Assembly: GCF_048403405.1 (NCBI RefSeq)
Contig: NZ_CP183129.1
DNA length: 64,000 bases
Strand: one strand, 5' to 3'
From: Escherichia coli
GTDB taxonomy: Bacteria > Pseudomonadota > Gammaproteobacteria > Enterobacterales > Enterobacteriaceae
The stretch's first letter is position 1. Every line of letters starts with the position of its first letter. Below the pieces are notes generated by a model. It had not been told where the DNA came from. It worked only from the letters and a program-made list of their open reading frames with translations, and searched no databases. Positions 6,473 through 50,462 of this stretch are shown in pieces. The translations under genes were made by a program, and so were the position numbers.

Positions 6473-6590
6473 CGGCTTTATTCCTCTTCTGCGGGAGAGG
6501 ATCAGGGTGAGGAACTTTTACGCCTCACCCTCACTCTCTTCGCAAGGAGAGAGGTTCACAATTCACTGCACGTTTCAGGAACCATCGCTC

Positions 6591-9464
6591 ATGACACAGA
6601 CGTTAAGCCAGCTTGAAAACAGCGGCGCTTTTATTGAACGCCATATCGGACCGGATGCCGCGCAACAGCAAGAAATGCTGAATGCCGTTGGCGCACAATC
6701 GTTAAACGCGCTGACCGGCCAGATTGTGCCGAAAGATATTCAGCTTGCGACCCCGCCGCAGGTTGGCGCACCGGCGACCGAATACGCCGCGCTGGCGGAA
6801 CTCAAGGCTATTGCCAGTCGCAATAAACGCTTCACGTCTTACATCGGCATGGGTTACACCGCCGTGCAGCTACCGCCGGTTATCCTGCGTAACATGCTGG
6901 AAAATCCGGGCTGGTATACCGCGTATACTCCGTATCAACCTGAAGTCTCCCAGGGCCGCCTTGAAGCACTGCTCAACTTCCAGCAGGTAACGCTGGATTT
7001 GACCGGGCTGGATATGGCCTCTGCTTCTCTTCTGGACGAGGCCACCGCTGCCGCCGAAGCAATGGCGATGGCGAAACGCGTCAGCAAACTGAAAAATGCC
7101 AACCGCTTCTTTGTTGCTTCTGACGTCCATCCGCAAACGCTCGATGTGGTCCGTACTCGTGCTGAAACCTTTGGTTTTGAAGTGATTGTCGATGATGCGC
7201 AAAAAGTGCTCGACCACCAGGACGTCTTCGGCGTGCTGTTACAGCAGGTCGGCACTACTGGTGAAATTCACGACTACACCGCGCTTATTAGCGAACTGAA
7301 ATCACGCAAAATTGTGGTCAGTGTCGCCGCCGATATTATGGCGCTGGTGCTGTTAACTGCGCCGGGTAAACAGGGCGCGGATATTGTTTTTGGTTCGGCG
7401 CAACGCTTTGGCGTACCGATGGGTTACGGTGGCCCACACGCGGCATTCTTTGCGGCGAAAGACGAATACAAACGCTCAATGCCGGGCCGTATTATCGGTG
7501 TATCGAAAGATGCAGCTGGCAACACCGCTCTGCGCATGGCGATGCAGACTCGCGAGCAACATATTCGTCGTGAGAAAGCGAACTCCAACATTTGTACTTC
7601 CCAGGTGCTGCTGGCAAACATCGCCAGCCTGTATGCCGTTTATCACGGCCCGGTTGGCCTGAAACGTATCGCTAACCGCATTCACCGTCTGACCGATATC
7701 CTGGCGGCAGGCCTGCAACAAAAAGGTCTGAAGCTGCGCCATGCGCACTATTTCGACACTCTGTGTGTGGAAGTGGCCGACAAGGCGGGCGTACTGGCGC
7801 GTGCCGAAGTGGCTGAAATCAACCTGCGTAGCGATATCCTGAACGCGGTTGGGATCACCCTTGATGAAACCACCACGCGCGAAAACGTGATGCAGCTTTT
7901 CAGCGTACTGCTGGGGGATAACCACGGACTGGACATCGACACGCTGGACAAAGACGTGGCTCACGATAGCCGCTCTATTCAGCCTGCAATGTTGCGCGAC
8001 GACGAAATCCTCACCCATCCGGTGTTTAATCGCTACCACAGCGAAACCGAAATGATGCGCTATATGCACTCGCTGGAGCGTAAAGATCTGGCGCTGAATC
8101 AGGCGATGATCCCGCTGGGTTCCTGCACCATGAAACTGAACGCCGCCGCCGAGATGATCCCCATCACCTGGCCGGAATTTGCCGAACTGCACCCGTTCTG
8201 CCCGCCGGAACAGGCCGAAGGTTATCAGCAGATGATTGCGCAACTGGCTGACTGGCTGGTGAAACTGACCGGTTACGACGCCGTTTGTATGCAGCCGAAC
8301 TCTGGCGCACAGGGCGAATATGCGGGCCTGCTGGCGATTCGTCATTATCATGAAAGCCGCAACGAAGGGCATCGCGATATCTGCCTGATCCCGGCTTCTG
8401 CGCACGGAACTAACCCCGCTTCTGCACATATGGCAGGAATGCAGGTGGTAGTTGTGGCATGTGATAAAAATGGCAACATCGATCTGACTGACCTGCGCGC
8501 GAAAGCGGAACAAGCGGGCGATAATCTCTCCTGCATCATGGTGACTTATCCTTCCACCCACGGCGTGTACGAAGAAACGATCCGTGAAGTGTGTGAAGTC
8601 GTGCATCAGTTCGGCGGTCAGGTTTACCTTGATGGCGCGAACATGAACGCCCAGGTCGGCATCACCTCACCGGGCTTTATTGGCGCGGACGTCTCGCACC
8701 TTAACCTGCATAAAACTTTCTGCATTCCGCACGGTGGCGGCGGCCCAGGTATGGGACCGATCGGCGTGAAAGCGCATCTGGCACCGTTTGTGCCAGGTCA
8801 TAGCGTGGTACAAATTGAAGGCATGTTAACCCGTCAGGGCGCGGTTTCTGCGGCACCGTTCGGTAGCGCATCCATTCTGCCAATCAGCTGGATGTACATC
8901 CGCATGATGGGCGCAGAAGGGCTGAAAAAAGCAAGCCAGGTGGCAATCCTCAACGCCAACTATATTGCCAGCCGCCTGCAGGATGCCTTCCCGGTGCTGT
9001 ATACCGGTCGCGACGGTCGCGTGGCGCACGAATGTATTCTCGATATTCGCCCGCTGAAAGAAGAAACCGGCATCAGCGAACTGGATATTGCCAAGCGTCT
9101 GATCGACTACGGTTTCCACGCGCCGACGATGTCGTTCCCGGTGGCGGGTACGCTGATGGTTGAACCGACTGAATCTGAAAGCAAAGTGGAACTGGATCGC
9201 TTTATCGACGCGATGCTGGCTATCCGCGCAGAAATTGACCAGGTGAAAGCCGGTGTCTGGCCGCTGGAAGATAACCCGCTGGTGAACGCGCCACACATTC
9301 AGAGCGAACTGGTCGCCGAGTGGGCGCATCCGTACAGCCGTGAAGTTGCAGTATTCCCGGCAGGCGTGGCAGACAAATACTGGTCGACAGTGAAACGTCT
9401 GGATGATGTTTACGGCGACCGTAACCTGTTCTGCTCCTGCGTACCGATTAGCGAATACCAGTAA
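6591..9464 (+). CDS. gcvP: Glycine dehydrogenase (decarboxylating), P protein
   Basis: Track ORF 6507..9464 trimmed to the ATG at codon 29 ([22 protein letters not shown]...), giving 957 aa, a PLP-dependent enzyme. Confidence 0.95.
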
Positions 9465-12240: not shown

Positions 12241-12316
12241 TGGGTGTGCCTTTGTAGGCCTGAAAAGACACACCCGCGTCGCATCAGGCGATAAATGCCT
12301 GATGCGACACAGAGAT
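12241..12316. repeat. REP-like palindromic element between the convergent yqfA and ygfZ genes
   Basis: GTCGCATCAGGCG...GCCTGATGCGAC inverted repeat with a GCCTGATGCGAC core in a 76-nt spacer; likely also acts as a bidirectional terminator. Confidence 0.6.
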
Positions 12317-30387: not shown

Positions 30388-30414
30388 ACAGAGAAACAGG
30401 CCGCCGAAGCGGCC
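30388..30414 (-). terminator. Rho-independent terminator after xdhD (end of the ygfK-ssnA-ygfM-xdhD transcription unit)
   Basis: GGCCGC-TTCG-GCGGCC hairpin on the minus strand followed by a T-rich tract (CTGTTTCTCTGTTTGG). Confidence 0.7.
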
Positions 30415-30423
30415 ATTTATTAT

Positions 30424-33294
30424 TTATATTTTTTCCAGCGCGGTGAGTATTTTCTCCGGTGTGAAATGCCATTCGCGTAACCAGATGCCGCATGCATCGT
30501 GAATTGCGGTAGCAATCGCCGGAGCTGCGCCATTTACACCGATTTCCGAGATCGATTTCGCCCCGAACGGGCCGACTTTATCGTCGCTCGGCACCAGCAC
30601 AGCGCGGAAATCACGCGGAATATCGCCTATTTTCGGTGCGCCGTAACTGCGTAAATCACGCGTTAACGGGTGACCTTCGGCGTCATAAATGATTTCTTCG
30701 CTCATACTGTGGCCGATTGCACGAAGGGTGGCACCGTAGATTTGTCCCAACGCTAACTCTGGATTGACCGGTGTACCGCAATCCAGCAAGGCGTAGAATT
30801 TATCCAGGCGGATTTCCCCCGTACGCGTGTTGACGGCAACTTCAGCAAAGTTTGCGCCATACGGGAAGGCGAAATCAGGCGTGATATAACTGCCAGTTCC
30901 CACCAGTGAACCAAAGCCGGTGCCGGTTTCGCCTTTATGGGCAATATCCCCGAAACTAACTTCGCCTTTCTTGCCGCGTACGACGCCCGGCGTTGCTAGT
31001 TGGACATCTGCCACTGGCTCACCCAACATTTGCGCACCGTGGAACAGAATTTTCTCCCGCAGATTTTCTGCTGCCAAGCGCGCCGCGTTACCCGAGAAGC
31101 AAGTACCGGACGAGGCATATGCGCCTTTATCAAACAACGCATGATCGGTATCACCGGAGATAACATGCACGTCCTGCGGTGGGCAGTGCAGCACTTCTGC
31201 TGCCAGTTTCGTCACCACCGTATCCAGACCAGTACCAATATCCGCACCGCCAGAATGAACGATAAAGGTACCGTCTGATTCCAGTTTGATCATGCAGTTA
31301 GCCTGATCGATATCTGGGATCCCTGATTTCTGCATGATAATGGCGACGCCACGACCGATGTGCCAGTCACCGTTTTGTGGTTTTGGTGAAGACCATTGGA
31401 TCATCTCGCGACCCTGACGCAGGATCTCTTCCAGTGCGCAGCTGGCGGCGGAAGGAACGGAGGTCGGCGCTTTACCTTCACCGATTGCACCGAGAATTTT
31501 CAGCTCTTGCCCTTCGTGTACCCGGTTACGTTCGATAATTTCCAGTTGGTCGATCTGTAACTGTTCAGCCAGTTCCGCTAATGCCATGGTGATAGCGAAG
31601 TTACCTTTCGGTGCGCCATAACCCTGATAAGCACCATTTGGGCAAATGTTGCTGTAGTAGGTGGTGACCTGGAAATCGACGTTATCGCACGGATATAACG
31701 GCAGCGACAGCGCCGGTCCGTTACACGGTACGGTGAGTGAGTGGTTGCCGTAAGGGCCAGTGTTGGCGCGGAAATCCATCTTCACTGCCGTCAGGCGACC
31801 ATCTTTTTTCGCTCCCAGTTTGACGGTGACTTTCGCGACGTGACGAGAGGTGTTAGCAATAAACTCTTCTTCACGGGTGTAGCGGAACAGTACCGGACGC
31901 CCGGTCACGCAGGTTGCCCAGGCGCACACTTCTTCCAGCAGGATGTCCTGTTTAGACCCAAAACCGCCGCCAACTCGCTCTTTAATGACATGAACTTTAT
32001 GTTGTTTCATGCCCACGAGGCGCGCGACCTGGCGGCGTAAGTGCCATGGTACTTGGGTGGAGGCGTGGATAACCAGACGATCGCCGTCCATACGGGTAAA
32101 GCAGATATGAGTTTCAGTCGGGCACTGCTGCGCCTGCGTTGAGTTATAGGTTCGCTCAATGATCACATCGGCATCGGCAAAGCCTTTGTCCATATCGCCA
32201 ATATGACCATGAATACTGGCGGCGATATTTTTACGGGGGCGAGAACCGATCGGGAAGTTGATGATCATATGCTCGCCGCGCTGGGCTGCATGGCTGTTAT
32301 CGTCTTCCAGAGTATCTGGCGCACCAGCAACATACACCACCGGTTCATCGTGCACGACAGGCGCATCTTCCGCCATTGCTTCGTCGATCGACATTACAGG
32401 TTTAAGCACTTCATATTCAACGTCGATGAGCTTCAGTGCTTCGAGCGCAATGTCTTCACTTTCTGCGACGACCGCAGCAACGCGATCGCCGACGTGACGC
32501 ATTTTCTTGCCGAACATACGGCGGTCAAGCGGTGACGGTTCCGGTGCGCTCTGACCGCCCGGGGTATAGTAGATATCCGGGCAATTCAGGTGAGTAATAA
32601 CGTGAACAACGCCCGGTAAGGCTTCAGCTTTGCTGACATCCAGATGAGTAATCAGTGCGTGAGCGTGTGGGCTACGTAACATTTTAATGACGCAGGCATC
32701 AGCCGTTACGCGGTCTTCAACATAGCAGGGTTTCGCCTGCACCATTTTCGCGGCATCAGTTTTAGGATAATGCTTACCAATGACTTCAAGGTCATCGCGG
32801 AAAGTCGGAGCGATATCAATGGTGGCCTGCGGATTATTTTTACGTGCAACCGCCAGTTCAATGACCTGATAGTATTGTTGCCAGCCTGCATCGCGGCTGA
32901 ACAAACCAGAAAGCGCGTCGTCGATCTCTTCGCGGGTCGGTGCGGCAATGCGATCGAGAAGATCGGTGATAATCAGAGCCGCAGCTGGATCGTTATAACC
33001 AGACTGCACCACGCCAACATCAACCATTGCCTGTTGAACCAGACTTAACTCGTTCCATTTGCCCAGAGACTCTGTGGTACGAATATCTGCCTTCTCTAAC
33101 TGTGCGGCGATAAGCAAGGACGCGTTAACGATATTACCGTTACAGATAATTGCGTCAGAACCGGCAAACCCGAATCCATCATCGCTGTTGCGTACAGAGT
33201 GCATTCCCATGTTAAACAACAGCTTTTGCACGTTTTCGCCTGGATTAACGGTTAGCTCCTGAGGCGCGCCATTTAAAGTAAAGTGGATGATCAT
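30424..33294 (-). CDS. xdhD: Molybdopterin-containing hydroxylase, fused 2Fe-2S plus molybdenum-binding subunit (xanthine dehydrogenase family; putative selenium-dependent)
   Basis: 956 aa; aldehyde-oxidase/xanthine-dehydrogenase-type large subunit with an N-terminal iron-sulfur domain. Confidence 0.88.
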   Translation of the reverse strand: MIIHFTLNGAPQELTVNPGENVQKLLFNMGMHSVRNSDDGFGFAGSDAIICNGNIVNASLLIAAQLEKADIRTTESLGKWNELSLVQQAMVDVGVVQSGYNDPAAALIITDLLDRIAAPTREEIDDALSGLFSRDAGWQQYYQVIELAVARKNNPQATIDIAPTFRDDLEVIGKHYPKTDAAKMVQAKPCYVEDRVTADACVIKMLRSPHAHALITHLDVSKAEALPGVVHVITHLNCPDIYYTPGGQSAPEPSPLDRRMFGKKMRHVGDRVAAVVAESEDIALEALKLIDVEYEVLKPVMSIDEAMAEDAPVVHDEPVVYVAGAPDTLEDDNSHAAQRGEHMIINFPIGSRPRKNIAASIHGHIGDMDKGFADADVIIERTYNSTQAQQCPTETHICFTRMDGDRLVIHASTQVPWHLRRQVARLVGMKQHKVHVIKERVGGGFGSKQDILLEEVCAWATCVTGRPVLFRYTREEEFIANTSRHVAKVTVKLGAKKDGRLTAVKMDFRANTGPYGNHSLTVPCNGPALSLPLYPCDNVDFQVTTYYSNICPNGAYQGYGAPKGNFAITMALAELAEQLQIDQLEIIERNRVHEGQELKILGAIGEGKAPTSVPSAASCALEEILRQGREMIQWSSPKPQNGDWHIGRGVAIIMQKSGIPDIDQANCMIKLESDGTFIVHSGGADIGTGLDTVVTKLAAEVLHCPPQDVHVISGDTDHALFDKGAYASSGTCFSGNAARLAAENLREKILFHGAQMLGEPVADVQLATPGVVRGKKGEVSFGDIAHKGETGTGFGSLVGTGSYITPDFAFPYGANFAEVAVNTRTGEIRLDKFYALLDCGTPVNPELALGQIYGATLRAIGHSMSEEIIYDAEGHPLTRDLRSYGAPKIGDIPRDFRAVLVPSDDKVGPFGAKSISEIGVNGAAPAIATAIHDACGIWLREWHFTPEKILTALEKI

Positions 33295-34070
33295 ACGGCT
33301 TCCTCCCCAGCCTGTTGGCAGTCGGCATACAGGTCGGCTACCAGAACTCCCGTGATATAGCGTTTATAGGCCACGCTGCCCCGCAAATCTTCCTGCGGGA
33401 AAATGGCGTTGGCGACAGCCTGTTCAAGTGCATTGCCTTCCAGATTTTGTTTTTCAACATCGTGCAGACGCAGGGCTTTACTGGCGACGCCATCCAGCGC
33501 AATTCGCATACCGTCGTGGTCTGTCATTGCAACGGCTGCCGTCACGACGGTTAAACCTGCCTGAGAACGGCTAATTTTGCGGGTCGCACAGGTGCGATAC
33601 GGATCTTTAATGATAATTTCGGTTAGCAGGCGATCGCATGGGCAGGCCAGGTACTCTTCGATTGACAGTGTTTCGCCATTGCCAAAAACCAGTTCAGCAT
33701 CCAGTGCCAGCAGGACGGGAAGCAGCACAGACTCTTCCTGCCGGGCGGCGATTTCACCACCAATGGTCGACTGATTACGAACATGGCGAGAGTAGACAAA
33801 GCCGAGGGCTTCACGCAGTGCTGCAGGAATAAATCGCGCATCACGCAGTGGCTGCAAGCGAGACATTGCGCCAATCCGCAGTGCACCGTTATCCCAGTCA
33901 ACCCAGTCCAGTTCCAGATCCTGTAAGGAAATGGCAATCTTTTTATCGGTACGGGTTGGTGTAGCGTTGAGTTTGCTGCCCCCGGCGAACCAGACGGCTT
34001 CATCCTTGTAGCGGCGCTTCAGTTCCAGCGCCTGTTCGACAGAGTCGGGCCTGAAAAATTGTTCAATCAT
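33291..34070 (-). CDS. ygfM: FAD-binding subunit (CO dehydrogenase medium-subunit-like) partner of XdhD
   Basis: 259 aa; its start overlaps the xdhD stop by 4 nt. Confidence 0.85.
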   Translation of the reverse strand: MIEQFFRPDSVEQALELKRRYKDEAVWFAGGSKLNATPTRTDKKIAISLQDLELDWVDWDNGALRIGAMSRLQPLRDARFIPAALREALGFVYSRHVRNQSTIGGEIAARQEESVLLPVLLALDAELVFGNGETLSIEEYLACPCDRLLTEIIIKDPYRTCATRKISRSQAGLTVVTAAVAMTDHDGMRIALDGVASKALRLHDVEKQNLEGNALEQAVANAIFPQEDLRGSVAYKRYITGVLVADLYADCQQAGEEAV

Positions 34071-34120
34071 CTTCTTTCCTTATTTAACCCTCTTCCCTAC
34101 GGGAAGAGGGTATTTGTCAT

Positions 34121-35449
34121 TTATGCCAGCGCATCCATCCGACGCCACATACTGGCAGCGGCTTTTCTGGCTTGCGCATAAATGGAATCGCAATCGAAGT
34201 TAAACTGACGGTCTTCATAGACCATCACGCCATTGACCATCACGCTATGAACGCTGCCTGAGCCCATACCGAAAGCGATATGCCCGGCGATATTGTCTGC
34301 CAGCAGCGGTGTCGGCGAGTTGTAATCGCAAATGGTTAAATCGGCTTTGTAACCGGCTTCCAGAAGGCCAAATTTCGCGCCAAAGTTGCGGCTCATCAGT
34401 TCGTTGCCGTTAGCCAGTGCTTTGGCAAAACTGTCAGGCCACAGCGGACCACCCGCATCGCGATGTTTAAAGAAGGCAAATTTCATCTCTTCAAACATGT
34501 CCGAACCAATGCCGTCAGTTCCCAACGCCAGATTGCGGATGTCGCTAAGGTGATGGTTGTAGCCGACATGGTTGTTCATGTTTGAACGGGCGTTATGCAC
34601 CAGGAACGCATCGCGCTGATTGAGTAGGGCGATGTCATCTTTCGACAAGTACAGCCCATGAGCGACCAGCGTTTTGCTGTCGATGAGATCGAATTGCGCC
34701 AGTCGTGCCAGCAGGTCTTTGCCGTACCAGTGGTGACTGTAGGAAACGTCATAAAGGTCTTCCGCAGCGTGAATGTGCAAACCACGACCTGTGGCTTTCA
34801 CGGCTTCACGCAGCATCTCCAGACCGGCATCCGGCACGGTAAACGGCGCGTGAGCGCCGATATGTGCTTCCACCAGATACGGTTCGGTTGCTGCTTTCTT
34901 CGCCTCATCAATCTGACGGGCGAAGCGGATGTTTTCTTCTACACCTTCCTGCAACTCTTTGATACCGTTGTTACGGTCAGTAGTTTCAAAACAGGTCATC
35001 GCGCGCAGGCCAACTTTTAAAAATGCGTTGCGCAATGTGGAGAGCGACCCGTCGATATACGCCGGAGAGGCATGGTGATCGATAACCGATGTACATCCGC
35101 CCTTAATCGCTTCCAGGGAACAAATCAGTCCGCTGTAATAGAGCGACTCTTCATCAAGGGCGCGATCGAGTCGCCACCAGAGATTTTTCAGCGTTGAGAT
35201 GAAATCCGGGCAGGGGGCGATGTTTGCCATAATTCCGCGGGACAGCCCCGAGTAAAAATGGTTGTGCGAGCAGACAATTCCTGGCATCACAATCCGACCA
35301 TGCATCTCTTTGTAGCTGGCATCGGGGTAGCGTTGCGTCAGGGCATCGCCGATAGCGACAATCACATCATTTTCGATGGCGATATCAACGCCTTCCTGCA
35401 CTTTCGCCGGGTGTAACTGCACTGCGGTGACATTCTTCAGAATCAACAT
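34121..35449 (-). CDS. ssnA: Amidohydrolase-family putative aminohydrolase SsnA (chlorohydrolase / nucleobase-deaminase-like)
   Basis: 442 aa with an HxH metal motif (PGIVCSHNHFYSG). Confidence 0.88.
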   Translation of the reverse strand: MLILKNVTAVQLHPAKVQEGVDIAIENDVIVAIGDALTQRYPDASYKEMHGRIVMPGIVCSHNHFYSGLSRGIMANIAPCPDFISTLKNLWWRLDRALDEESLYYSGLICSLEAIKGGCTSVIDHHASPAYIDGSLSTLRNAFLKVGLRAMTCFETTDRNNGIKELQEGVEENIRFARQIDEAKKAATEPYLVEAHIGAHAPFTVPDAGLEMLREAVKATGRGLHIHAAEDLYDVSYSHHWYGKDLLARLAQFDLIDSKTLVAHGLYLSKDDIALLNQRDAFLVHNARSNMNNHVGYNHHLSDIRNLALGTDGIGSDMFEEMKFAFFKHRDAGGPLWPDSFAKALANGNELMSRNFGAKFGLLEAGYKADLTICDYNSPTPLLADNIAGHIAFGMGSGSVHSVMVNGVMVYEDRQFNFDCDSIYAQARKAAASMWRRMDALA

Positions 35450-35451
35450 GA

Positions 35452-38400
35452 TTACACCTCCACGCGGCCCAGCAGATAATGATGATGCTGGTGGACATGG
35501 CTAATAATGCGGCACATATCGTTCAGCTCCGGTGGTACGTTGTTGAACTGACCTTCGCTGTCGATGTTTAACACCCAGCTTTGGTTATTCAGACGTACTC
35601 GTACCCGGCAATCTTCCACAAGGAAGCCAGGGTTGCTGCTGTTATCAAAGTCTTGCGACAGGCTGAAGACGGTGATTTTGTCTTTGTACGGTTTACCGTT
35701 CCACGGGCAGAACTGAGCGCAGTTGCCGCATTCGTTACAGTAAGCGTCGAGGTGCAGCGTCTGGAAACGGTTCTGGAAGCCAGGGACCGCAATGGATACG
35801 TTGGCGCGGTTCGGGCAGACATCCACACACTTGCTGCAAACGTAGTTACATTCAAGGCAGCGTGCGGCTTCCTGGGCGACAAACGCGTCACGATCGTCGC
35901 TATCCACCAGGGTGATAGAGATATCGCCTTTGCGTTGATAGATTTCCGCCGGATTGACGTTGTTCCAGTATTTATCGTTCTGGTGGGAACGGATGTTTTC
36001 CCGACTAAGGATGGCATCGGTCGCCCGACGCGCGGTTCCGACAGCAGCGACAATGGAGGATGGTCCGCGCTGTACGTCGCCGATCATAAAGACGTCAGTC
36101 AGACGAGTTTCGCCATTATGGTCGACGTCTGGCCAGCCGTTTTTGTCCAGCGGCACGCCCATCGCATTCAGGGCTTCAGTATCCTGCTGTTCACCAATGG
36201 CGGTGATCAGGCTGTCTACATGCAGTGTTACTGTTTCGTTGGTTTCAACCGGACGGCGACGACCTTTCTCATCAGGTTCGCCAAGCGACATAACGCGCAA
36301 GGTTAAGGTGCCATCAGCATCGAAACGTTCCGGATTATTCAGGAAACGGAACTCCACGCCGTCGTGCAACGCTTCTTCATACTCTTCGCGCCATGCTGGC
36401 ATCTCTTGCAGTGAACGACGGTAAACGACCGTTGCTTTTTCTACGCCTGGAACGCGTAACGCCGCACGAGCGCAGTCCATTGCCGTGTTACCCGCCCCGA
36501 CAACGACCACATGTTTGCCCAGCTTGAGCGCTGTGCCCTTGTTGTATTCACGCAGGAAGGGGAGTGATTTCCAGACATTTTGGTTGTCGCCCGCCAGTTT
36601 CACACCGCTATTTTTATCAGTGCCGGTGGCAATCAGAACATAGTGGAAGCCCTGATTTTTTAACTGTTCAACGGTCAGATCGGGTGAGCAGCCATACTCA
36701 AATTTCACGCCGTGAGCGGCAACAAAATCGATATCGTGCTGAATTAACTCTGCAGGAATACGGAACTGAGGAATGATATTTTTCACCACGCCGCCCGCAT
36801 TGGCTTCGCGTTCAAACAGCGTAACCGGATGGCCCGCTCTGGCAAGGAAGTAACCTGCTGCCAGACCCGCCGGACCTGCACCAATCACGGCAACCGGATG
36901 GCGTGAACCAGAACCGGCTGGTTTGTGCCAGCGTTGCTTATATTCATCCCAACCTTTTTCCAGCGCGACTTTTTTCAGTTCGCGGATATTCAGCGCACTG
37001 TCGTAATCCAGGCGGGTACAGTTGTATTGGCACTGGTGATCGCAAATATGACCGGTAATGGCGGGCAGGGCGTTGCGTTGGTAGATGAGTTCCAGCGCGT
37101 CAGCATAGCGGTGTTCGCCAAGCAAACGGATGTATTCCGGAATATCTTGCTTGATAGCGCAGGCAGTAACACAGGGGGCAACGTAGCAGTCGGTCAGCGG
37201 CAGGTCTTCTGCCACTTCAATACGCTCTTCTGGTTTCCAGTGTTTTTGAGTGTATTCCATGGTTAACGCGTCTGCTGACAGTTTGTTCAGTCGTTCGACG
37301 TCAACATGGTCAAGCCCCCAGGCGTCGGAGCCTTCCAGCTCGCGCATGCAGGCACTTAAGCGCAGATAGCCGCCAGGTTTCAGCAGGTCGGTTGCCATAG
37401 TAATAGGGCGAATACCAGTATCAAAAATATCGCGGATAGTCAGCTGACTGGCACCACCGGAATAAGAAATGGGCAGTTTGCCGTCAAAGGCGCGAGAGAG
37501 AACTGCTGCAACATTGATGGAGAGCGGGAACAGCGCACGGCCTGACATATACATCTCTTCACCAGGCAGTGCGCCTTTATTGTTGATGGTGCCGAGAGTG
37601 TTAGTCAGTTTTACGCCAAAGCCGAGTGATTTTTCTTTTGCCAGTGCCATCAGGCGTTCCAGCATTTCCAGCGCTTGCGTCAGCTTGAGGTCGTGATCAA
37701 ATGACTCTTCTTTTAAGCCTATGTAACCGAAACCGCAGACATCGAGGATCTCACGAACACGCGCGTACCCCAGTAAGGTCGGGTTGAGTTTCACAAAGGT
37801 ATTGAGCCCTTTTTCTTCCAGCATGTAGCGGCAAATGGCTTCGATTTCATGCGGAGGGCAGCCGTGCATGGTGGAGAGGGTAACGCCTTGTACCATGCTG
37901 GTGGGGATGCGTGCCGGTAAGGCCTGCAAGCATTCGCGTTTTTCCTGTAAGCCGTGGCGGGCTAAAAATGCGTCATCCTGGAGTAGTTTATTCAGCGTAT
38001 CGCGATATTGCGCGAATTTCGGATGGTCAGATGCGTCCATCATATTGTCGATGAACTGTTGCATCGGCGGTTGCTTAATACCTTCGAGGTTGTAACCGAC
38101 GCTCATATTAAAGATGAACGATTTACCGGAATCAGAAGGCTGGAACATCGCTTCGAGAAGGTGCAGGGCAAACCAGGCTTTGAGGTATTCATCCCAGGCT
38201 TTAAGCAGGGTAAATTCGGTGGACCATTCGGTGTTAAAGCACTCGTCTTCGGCATCGATACAGGGCTTTTCCAGCTCCAGGCGGTCAAGAATTTGGACGG
38301 TTTTTAGTTCGATGAAGCGTCCGCCAGTCAGCCAGGAAGTGACAATATTTTGCGCGAGCTGCGTGTGCGGGCCAGCGGCGGGGCCGACGGGAGTGGCACA

Positions 38401-38550
38401 GGTTTCACCGAAGACGCTAACAGTTTTACCTTTTACGGGTGAGTAAAACTGTTGCTCGGGAATACCAAAGATTGAGCGTTGTTGTTGGTATTCATCAAAT
38501 ATGCGCGTCAAAAGTTCCTCAAACGGAATGGGACGCATAATATCCCCCAT
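35452..38550 (-). CDS. ygfK: Large Fe-S flavoprotein oxidoreductase YgfK (glutamate-synthase/dihydropyrimidine-dehydrogenase-like; annotated elsewhere as putative selenate reductase subunit)
   Basis: 1032 aa; [18 protein letters not shown] dinucleotide fold and a C-terminal 4Fe-4S motif (CLECNYVCSKCVDVCP). Confidence 0.88.
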   Translation of the reverse strand: MGDIMRPIPFEELLTRIFDEYQQQRSIFGIPEQQFYSPVKGKTVSVFGETCATPVGPAAGPHTQLAQNIVTSWLTGGRFIELKTVQILDRLELEKPCIDAEDECFNTEWSTEFTLLKAWDEYLKAWFALHLLEAMFQPSDSGKSFIFNMSVGYNLEGIKQPPMQQFIDNMMDASDHPKFAQYRDTLNKLLQDDAFLARHGLQEKRECLQALPARIPTSMVQGVTLSTMHGCPPHEIEAICRYMLEEKGLNTFVKLNPTLLGYARVREILDVCGFGYIGLKEESFDHDLKLTQALEMLERLMALAKEKSLGFGVKLTNTLGTINNKGALPGEEMYMSGRALFPLSINVAAVLSRAFDGKLPISYSGGASQLTIRDIFDTGIRPITMATDLLKPGGYLRLSACMRELEGSDAWGLDHVDVERLNKLSADALTMEYTQKHWKPEERIEVAEDLPLTDCYVAPCVTACAIKQDIPEYIRLLGEHRYADALELIYQRNALPAITGHICDHQCQYNCTRLDYDSALNIRELKKVALEKGWDEYKQRWHKPAGSGSRHPVAVIGAGPAGLAAGYFLARAGHPVTLFEREANAGGVVKNIIPQFRIPAELIQHDIDFVAAHGVKFEYGCSPDLTVEQLKNQGFHYVLIATGTDKNSGVKLAGDNQNVWKSLPFLREYNKGTALKLGKHVVVVGAGNTAMDCARAALRVPGVEKATVVYRRSLQEMPAWREEYEEALHDGVEFRFLNNPERFDADGTLTLRVMSLGEPDEKGRRRPVETNETVTLHVDSLITAIGEQQDTEALNAMGVPLDKNGWPDVDHNGETRLTDVFMIGDVQRGPSSIVAAVGTARRATDAILSRENIRSHQNDKYWNNVNPAEIYQRKGDISITLVDSDDRDAFVAQEAARCLECNYVCSKCVDVCPNRANVSIAVPGFQNRFQTLHLDAYCNECGNCAQFCPWNGKPYKDKITVFSLSQDFDNSSNPGFLVEDCRVRVRLNNQSWVLNIDSEGQFNNVPPELNDMCRIISHVHQHHHYLLGRVEV

Positions 38551-38871
38551 AACCCTCTCCTTAGCTTATACAGATATCATTGAGTGACCGGTGTTGAGAA
38601 ATCCGGTGGTTTAGGGGGATAGAGCAACAATCGCACCACTCTTGCCAGGTTTGGCGGGAAATATAAAAAAATGTGAGGCGGCTCGAAACTTAGGGGCTTT
38701 TTGTGAAAGAACTCACAGGTGCCAAATGAGAATTAAAATCACTCCTGAAAATTATTATTGCCAGCCCATTTATCACTTTTTCTCTTTTCTCAAAATCAGT
38801 GATTCCTTATCATTATGATAAAGAGAACTGGAAGGGTTAAATATTTGAACGCAATCGTTTAACTACGTTTT

Positions 38872-44402: not shown

Positions 44403-44454
44403 AGCAAACTCCAAAAACCCTCCGGCGAACCGGAGGGGAATAAGTGAAGAGTAA

Positions 44455-45666: not shown

Positions 45667-45723
45667 TATTTTTCTCCAGATTTTTTACTCCCCGTTTTGC
45701 AGGGAGCAGTTCCAATAGGGTGA

Positions 45724-46920: not shown

Positions 46921-46977
46921 ATCCTATCCTTTTGGCCTCTGGAAATAGAGGGCCGACCAGCTGATCGGCCCGAGGGG

Positions 46978-50422: not shown

Positions 50423-50432
50423 CCTCAGTGAA

Positions 50433-50462
50433 TCCGGCCTGAATTCAGGCCGGATATCCTTT
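50433..50462. terminator. Bidirectional terminator between the convergent ygeV and xdhC genes
   Basis: Perfect 22-bp palindrome TCCGGCCTGAATTCAGGCCGGA followed by a T-rich tract. Confidence 0.7.

Follow-up and report, generated by a model that had tools for sequence, protein, structure and literature searches.

In 34 gene pairs of Escherichia coli, differential mRNA decay favours the 5′ gene, and in 26 of these 34 the transcript ends after a hairpin (Dar and Sorek, 2018; PMC5927463). The hairpins concerned are stable, lack a U-tract, are frequently conserved and lie just before the stabilised mRNA end; they act by blocking 3′ exonucleases, as in malE–malF (PMC5927463). Another intercistronic hairpin, that of papB–papA, is a 5′ stabiliser after RNase E cleavage. 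Here, we analyzed a hairpin at a gene boundary of the ygfK–ssnA–ygfM–xdhD operon in a 64-kb stretch of E. coli DNA (the window). The operon encodes the first steps of anaerobic urate/purine degradation, which were recently worked out in gut bacteria; YgfK and SsnA form a coupled pair, and XdhD–YgfM form a complex (PMC12507026).

The ssnA–ygfM spacer and its hairpin

All four genes lie on the minus strand of the window: ygfK at 38550..35452; ssnA, encoding a 442-aa aminohydrolase, at 34121..35449 (stop codon TAA at 34123..34121); ygfM, encoding a 259-aa FAD subunit, at 33291..34070 (ATG at 34070..34068); and xdhD at 33294..30424. The ssnA coordinates follow from the list of open reading frames and the RefSeq annotation of the SMS-3-5 locus, which is 100% identical to the window across this region, and the N-terminal sequence MIEQFF of YgfM is kept across genera. 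ygfK and ssnA are separated by 2 nt, and ygfM and xdhD overlap by 4 nt. The sole gap of the operon is thus the ssnA–ygfM spacer, which lies between the two biochemical modules and occupies exactly the 50 nt from 34071 to 34120, where the original prediction had placed an inverted repeat between the ssnA stop and the ygfM start. At the 5′ end of the operon, a sigma54-type promoter motif, TGGTGCGATTGTTGCT (GG-N10-GC), was observed at 38623-38638 on the minus strand, about 72 nt 5′ of the ygfK ATG. At the 3′ end, a hairpin, GGCCGCUUCGGCGGCC followed by UGUUUCUCUG, lies just 3′ of the xdhD stop (30399-30414, minus strand), and the TRS data place a 3′ end after xdhD, at MG1655 position 3024218. This hairpin is probably the main terminator of the ygfK–xdhD unit, upstream of xanQ.

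In the spacer, the mRNA hairpin A-CCCUCUUCCC-GUA-GGGAAGAGGG-U (34087-34111, minus strand) has a perfect stem of 11 bp and a loop of 3 nt. The stem had been predicted to be perfect, which it is, and to comprise 10 bp, to which an additional A-U pair adds one. The predicted loop TAC is that of the plus strand; because the genes lie on the minus strand, the mRNA reads CCCUCUUCCC-GUA-GGGAAGAGGG. The order in the transcript is UAA-AUGACAAAU-(A-CCCUCUUCCC-GUA-GGGAAGAGGG-U)-UAAAUAAGGAAAGAAG-AUG. A single-stranded stretch of 9 nt, AUGACAAAU (34112..34120), separates the ssnA stop from the pyrimidine-rich 5′ arm A-CCCUCUUCCC (34101..34111), and the first paired base is at +13 counted from the first base of the stop codon; the hairpin would form immediately beyond the RNA covered by a ribosome that terminates at ssnA. 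The loop (34098..34100) is followed by the purine-rich 3′ arm GGGAAGAGGG-U (34087..34097), which ends 16 nt before the ygfM AUG and leaves the ribosome-binding site free. The ygfM Shine–Dalgarno (SD) region, AAGGAAAG (34074..34081), begins 5 nt 3′ of the stem and ends 3 nt 5′ of the AUG, with its AGGA core 6 nt from the AUG. RNAfold predicted no structure in the spacer other than the hairpin, with the SD unpaired. Because the SD is free in the predicted fold, a switch that occludes it was rejected, and translational control by occlusion of the ribosome-binding site is unsupported.

The stability of the hairpin was compared with that of shuffled sequences. RNAfold gave the 56-nt spacer sequence a folding energy of -19.9 kcal/mol, whereas its shuffles gave -5.8 ± 2.4 (z = -5.9); in a 90-nt context, z was -3.4 and none of 200 shuffles was equally stable. 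Perfect hairpins of at least 11 bp occur twice in the window, against 0.13 expected, and this one is the most stable 40-nt fold within the surrounding 5 kb. These data confirmed that the hairpin is real. RefSeq has no annotation beneath it, and the Rfam 15 covariance models gave no match overlapping the spacer, even at E ≤ 10.

Several identities were considered and rejected. In each of 3,977 genomes, a 43-nt query matched a single place, and the window holds one match to the hairpin pattern even with three mismatches allowed; with one copy per genome, the hairpin is not a REP, BoxC or similar repeat. A Rho-independent terminator was defined as a G/C-rich hairpin followed within 0–2 nt by a U run (at least 5 in 8). 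On the sense strand, only 2 of the 8 tail nucleotides (UAAAUAAG) are U, the terminator scan made no call on the gene strand there, and tails are U-poor in most genera, so that a gene-strand intrinsic terminator was rejected, in agreement with the original prediction, which had noted no strong T-run and doubted a classical terminator. A mini-ORF begins directly after the ssnA stop (UAA-AUG; 34068-34120, minus strand). In K-12, it has 17 codons (MTDALFPQGRGLNKERR) and its terminal UGA overlaps the ygfM AUG; in the window, it has 7 (MTNTLFP), because the GUA loop creates a UAG. As this mini-ORF is truncated in the window and in O157, lacks an AUG in the B2 type and is absent from other genera, it is not conserved, and its reading as a bridging translational relay was rejected. 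The CCUC...GAGG motif shared by spacers of the gene cluster was not enriched in the window (11 against 9.8 expected).

Other hairpins were observed in the window. In the ygeW–ygeX–ygeY–hyuA–yqeA urate operon, there are four spacers of about 50 nt, and in three of them a hairpin lies near the stop codon (46921-46977, 45667-45723 and 44403-44454, all minus strand), and hairpin-filled spacers seem to be the rule in the urate gene cluster. The ygeY–hyuA hairpin, CCCUCCGG-UUCG-CCGGAGGG followed by UUUUU, coincides with a mapped 3′ end at MG1655 position 3010018 and looks like a true terminator. A perfect 12-bp REP-like hairpin, GUCGCAUCAGGC...GCCUGAUGCGAC, lies between convergent genes at 12278-12308, and a perfect 10-bp hairpin, AUCCGGCCUG...CAGGCCGGAU, lies between the convergent ends of ygeV and xdhC at 50432-50455. 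At 6483-6554 (plus strand), upstream of the large ORF at 6507..9464, sequences of the CCUC...GAGG and GGGTGAGG types are clustered; the cluster looks like a dispersed intergenic repeat of enterobacteria.

Variation of the stem within E. coli and across genera

The K-12-type spacer query matched 3,977 E. coli genomes and a B2-type query another 1,200, giving 5,177 genomes with the locus, all of which are accounted for by two deep spacer haplogroups. The exact K-12 type, with a G.U at the stem base and the loop GCA, was found in 3,056 genomes; the exact O157 type, in which one G is deleted, leaving 10 bp and a 4-nt loop, in 318; and the window type, defined by the 43-nt match, with 11 bp and the loop GUA, in 105. 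The rest of the 3,977 are close variants, of which two, Jnd12 and E69, were examined and have 11 bp. In the B2 group, 1,198 of the 1,200 carry the exact sequence CCCCUCUUCU(U)-UCA-(G)AGAAGAGGGG, with the loop UCA. All haplotype representatives examined keep 10–12 pairs. Between the B2 and window types, the basal pair changes from A-U to C-G and an inner pair from C-G to U-A, with both sides changed each time. The differences among haplotypes include A-U or G.U to C-G at the base and C-G through U.G to U-A near the loop, and both U.G intermediates and the completed U-A were found at loop-proximal pairs in E. coli E69, E. whittamii and Escherichia sp. E1V33. These changes trace a textbook path of compensatory evolution.

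Two E. coli assemblies depart from this arrangement. One encodes a 385-aa protein in which the N-terminal ~245 residues of SsnA are fused to the C-terminal part of YgfM, a natural in-frame deletion in which the spacer and the hairpin are gone. In NZ_CP102488.1 (E. coli ST69), the match to the 3′ end of ssnA is split between two places, with the break near 34169, which suggests an insertion or rearrangement inside ssnA.

Across genera, 26 versions of the ssnA–ygfM junction were assembled from a scan of a genome collection with YgfM and from contig look-ups for YgfM homologues. Related-looking, pyrimidine-rich 5′ arms were found in Citrobacter R56, Pseudocitrobacter, Atlantibacter, Trabulsiella, Pluralibacter/E. 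lignolyticus and one MAG, with most positions different (e.g., CCCUCUCCU, CGCCUCCCG, CCUCCCCGC, UUUCUCCCCC and GGUCUCUCCGC). Unrelated stems occupy the same slot in Buttiauxella, Serratia, Hafnia, Morganella, Edwardsiella and the beta-proteobacterium Paludibacterium. RNAalifold, run on a sequence-only MAFFT alignment, recovered the helix, and all nine of its pairs showed changes on both sides. Pairing was 88%, against 72% in shuffles (none of 500 reached the observed value) and 57–72% when the partners were slid; in a 21-sequence alignment, it was 79% against 66% in shuffles (0 of 500). Two loci with misleading labels were also encountered. A 7.7-kb contig labelled Flavobacterium paronense carries K-12-type E. 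coli ssnA–ygfM, in which the start region of ygfM has one additional T, and is almost certainly assembly contamination, and a locus labelled Citrobacter freundii M-21 carries an Atlantibacter-type sequence.

Where ssnA lies directly upstream of ygfM, 17 of 19 lineages have a junction hairpin within the top 3.4% of local folds, among them Serratia, Hafnia, Morganella, Edwardsiella and Paludibacterium, and in 8 of the 19 it ranks first among all folds in about 5.7 kb. Two lineages that keep the gene order are exceptions: Klebsiella indica has a weakened stem of 6 bp, and the AT-rich endosymbiont Arsenophonus lacks a stem. In most lineages, the stem starts 4–10 nt past the stop and ends 15–20 nt before the AUG, a constant geometry in which hardly any RNA is exposed between the stem and the translated ORF, and an SD-like GAGG/AGGA motif is found in the same place in all genera. 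We consider the hairpin to be clearly under selection, as judged from these comparisons.

A U-tract follows the stem in two genera only, as UUUUG in Edwardsiella and as UUUGUCCUUCU after the first stem in Hafnia; these tails look like those of real terminators, which the others do not resemble. In lineages without a U-tract, the 8-nt tail has 0–3 U, and in Atlantibacter, Trabulsiella and Pluralibacter 0–1. With the U-tract confined to two genera, termination is not the conserved role.

In Kluyvera and Klebsiella aerogenes, the gene order is xdhA–xdhB–xdhC, a gap of about 370–540 nt and then ygfM–xdhD (locus positions about 2100-2500), probably as the result of a single rearrangement. In Kluyvera, the gap before ygfM contains sigma54-type motifs (TGGTATGGACGTTGCT and TGGTGCGAATGTTGCT) nearly identical to that 5′ of ygfK in the window; ygfK–ssnA is missing from that position in both Kluyvera and K. 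aerogenes. Before the ygfM SD, both taxa, which lack ssnA upstream, have a weak CCCYUC...GARGGG stem of 5–7 bp with a loop of 11–13 nt. The weakness of these relic stems is as expected under relaxed selection.

Published transcript ends and functional readings

Published maps list no 3′ end at the junction. The Term-seq data of Adams (2021), in which the operon is nearly silent, show no end at the hairpin and only an xdhD-internal end at 3022649. The TRS sheet naming these genes, with few reads, lists no end between 3012394 and 3024218, and so none after ssnA; its ends near the locus, after ygeY (3010018) and after xdhD (3024218), have marginal read support. With so little expression of the operon in the published conditions, the missing ssnA 3′ end is weak evidence. 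No ssnA or ygfM 3′ ends or operon maps were found in the supplements of Dar and Sorek (2018) and of SMRT-Cappable-seq, and no E. coli operon-level transcript data were found in the urate-pathway papers. In UPEC, the log2 fold changes for mouse versus human UTI are -5.8 for ygfK, -5.3 for ssnA, -3.9 for xdhD and -3.6 for xanQ (PMC7439467). The step between ssnA and xdhD fits a discontinuity at the junction and is a weak hint of one, whatever its cause.

Compensatory evolution of the stem, together with the absence of a U-tract in most genera, favours a stability, processing or boundary role at the RNA level. The proposal of RNA processing or stability in the original prediction is thereby partly supported. 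Being stable, free of a U-tract and just out of reach of a ribosome terminating at ssnA, the hairpin fits the class of Dar and Sorek, which favours a 3′-protective element. We therefore tentatively interpret the hairpin as an intercistronic 3′-protective boundary element for the ygfK–ssnA segment of the mRNA, a reading to which we give slightly less than an even chance. As such an element, the hairpin would block 3′-to-5′ exonucleases (PNPase, RNase II), possibly with weak attenuation added. After cleavage of the mRNA anywhere downstream, the ygfK–ssnA segment would end in a protected stem-loop and would outlast the ygfM–xdhD segment; from this we infer that the YgfK+SsnA and XdhD–YgfM modules may be made in different amounts from one promoter. 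The weakened stem of K. indica, the lack of a stem in Arsenophonus and a draw between sense and antisense hairpin stability (10 against 11) count against the barrier, as does, weakly, the missing 3′ end.

The main rival, which we regard as rather unlikely, is a leaky attenuator, that is, a weak intrinsic or factor-assisted terminator after ssnA that would lower transcription of ygfM–xdhD relative to ygfK–ssnA. In E. coli, the stem is followed by 8 nt consisting of A and U only (UUAAAUAA; AAAUUAAG in the B2 type), so that the RNA:DNA hybrid would be weak. With their U-rich tails, the Edwardsiella and Hafnia equivalents have the look of canonical terminators, so termination may occur there; the adjacent ygeY–hyuA spacer combines a hairpin and U5 with a mapped 3′ end; and the fold-change step in UPEC fits attenuation equally well. 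Against this stand the E. coli tail with its 2 U in 8 nt, the failure of the terminator scan to call the gene strand and the lack of a 3′ end at the site in the available maps, in which the operon is barely expressed. Moreover, Atlantibacter, Trabulsiella and Pluralibacter keep the stem with G/C- or A-rich tails (AAAAACGA, AGCCGAAG and AACCAAGA), so that termination cannot be the conserved, selected function.

The hairpin might instead serve ygfM, either as a papBA-type 5′ cap, protecting the ygfM–xdhD mRNA once RNase E has cut just upstream, or as an insulator, holding the ygfM ribosome-binding site free of structure and uncoupling ygfM translation from ssnA; we consider this unlikely. Dar and Sorek also described a 5′-protective class (PMC5927463), and in most Enterobacteriaceae the end of the stem is 4–7 nt from the SD, while its distance from the AUG varies little (15–18 nt). 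With the stem so close to the SD, sequence alone is compatible both with a 3′-protective role and with a 5′-protective or translational one. The upstream spacer of E. coli, AUGACAAAU, is AU-rich, as RNase E prefers, but elsewhere this spacer is C-rich (AACCUGC, CCCUGUC, ACCCGC) and would be a poor RNase E substrate. Kluyvera and K. aerogenes retain a weak related stem 5′ of the ygfM SD although ssnA is gone, and Propionivibrio has a U-less hairpin before ygfM, downstream of an unrelated gene; however, the ssnA-less relics are far weaker than the junction hairpins, and the SD is free in predicted folds with or without the stem. The C-rich spacers outside Escherichia and the weak relics without ssnA make the function lean toward the junction or ssnA. 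A dedicated translational insulator or switch, stopping ribosomes from ssnA from scanning into ygfM and setting the XdhD–YgfM to YgfK–SsnA ratio, is in our view doubtful. The pyrimidine-rich 5′ arm resembles an anti-Shine–Dalgarno sequence (CCUCC-like), and the purine-rich 3′ arm is SD-like (GGAG/GAGG) throughout the Escherichia–Citrobacter–Atlantibacter–Trabulsiella–Pluralibacter group. If such an insulator existed, only its position and structure would be selected, and this in two proteobacterial classes.

A function on the antisense strand or of the DNA itself, as a terminator of antisense transcription into ssnA or as a palindromic protein-binding site, is highly improbable. A perfect inverted repeat is identical on both strands; the terminator scan made its only call on the plus strand of the window, where the stem is followed by ATTTGTCATT; and the comparison of sense and antisense stability, being a draw, was uninformative overall for assigning the strand. 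The plus-strand call reflects the fortuitously T-rich complement of the ssnA stop region, and this U-rich tail is not conserved (e.g., CAUCUGUCA in K-12 and GACAGGGUUAG in Trabulsiella). Within Escherichia only, wobble pairs favour the sense strand: they are G.U there and would be A.C mismatches on the antisense, with -14.8 against -10.0 kcal/mol in E. whittamii and -19.7 against -17.7 in K-12. Promoter-like sites were not enriched (12 against 10.2 expected), and the complete turnover of the sequence between genera argues against a DNA-binding site. Finally, the hairpin could be a functionless relic, for example of a terminator that predated the joining of the two gene pairs, kept by mutational inertia. 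The tolerance of K. indica and Arsenophonus for its weakening or loss would fit this disfavoured reading, to which we assign a small probability. It is opposed by compensatory double substitutions and their G.U intermediates, seen among E. coli genomes and also between genera, and by the full replacement of the stem sequence, with position and stability retained, across at least 15 genera.

The anaerobic urate pathway is being engineered for urate lowering (PMC12507026), and if the hairpin sets the levels of the XdhD–YgfM reductase relative to the YgfK–SsnA ring-opening pair, it would be a practical knob for balancing the pathway. It would then also be a clean natural case in which operon stoichiometry depends on a structure that keeps its position through complete turnover of its sequence. 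Beyond that, the hairpin illustrates a well-known principle and establishes no new one, so its significance is modest.

Comparison with described hairpin classes

The hairpin was compared with REP/BIME elements, intrinsic terminators and the papB–papA element. It shares with REP/BIME elements an extragenic palindrome in an operon spacer, and the Buttiauxella equivalent (GCCGGAU...AUCCGGC) is REP-like; unlike them, it is present in one copy per E. coli genome and has no REP consensus. Like intrinsic terminators, including leaky ones inside operons, it is a G/C-rich hairpin shortly past a stop codon, and the equivalents in Edwardsiella and Hafnia have the U-rich tail of that class, of which the ygeY–hyuA spacer holds a canonical example. 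In contrast, the E. coli tail UAAAUAAG is U-poor, and several genera have no U at all after the conserved stem. The hairpin resembles that of papB–papA in lying between cistrons, right before the ribosome-binding site of the downstream gene, but it differs in the C-rich upstream spacer outside Escherichia and in a stem that weakens where ygfM heads its own transcript.

The closest likeness is to malE–malF and the elements of Dar and Sorek. As there, a stable sense-strand stem-loop without a U-tract, conserved between species, lies at a gene boundary within an operon, at a point where the mRNA might be required at different levels on the two sides; the absence of the U-tract is shared in most genera, with Edwardsiella and Hafnia as the exceptions. 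The malE–malF element is a multi-copy REP sequence, whereas the ssnA–ygfM hairpin is single-copy, and most elements of Dar and Sorek lie inside the downstream coding sequence, whereas this hairpin fills a dedicated 50-nt spacer. Their class is defined by a mapped 3′ end and differential decay, and the present hairpin by its sequence and predicted fold. On this comparison, the ssnA–ygfM hairpin is best filed as an unannotated, new example of the known class of intercistronic mRNA hairpins.
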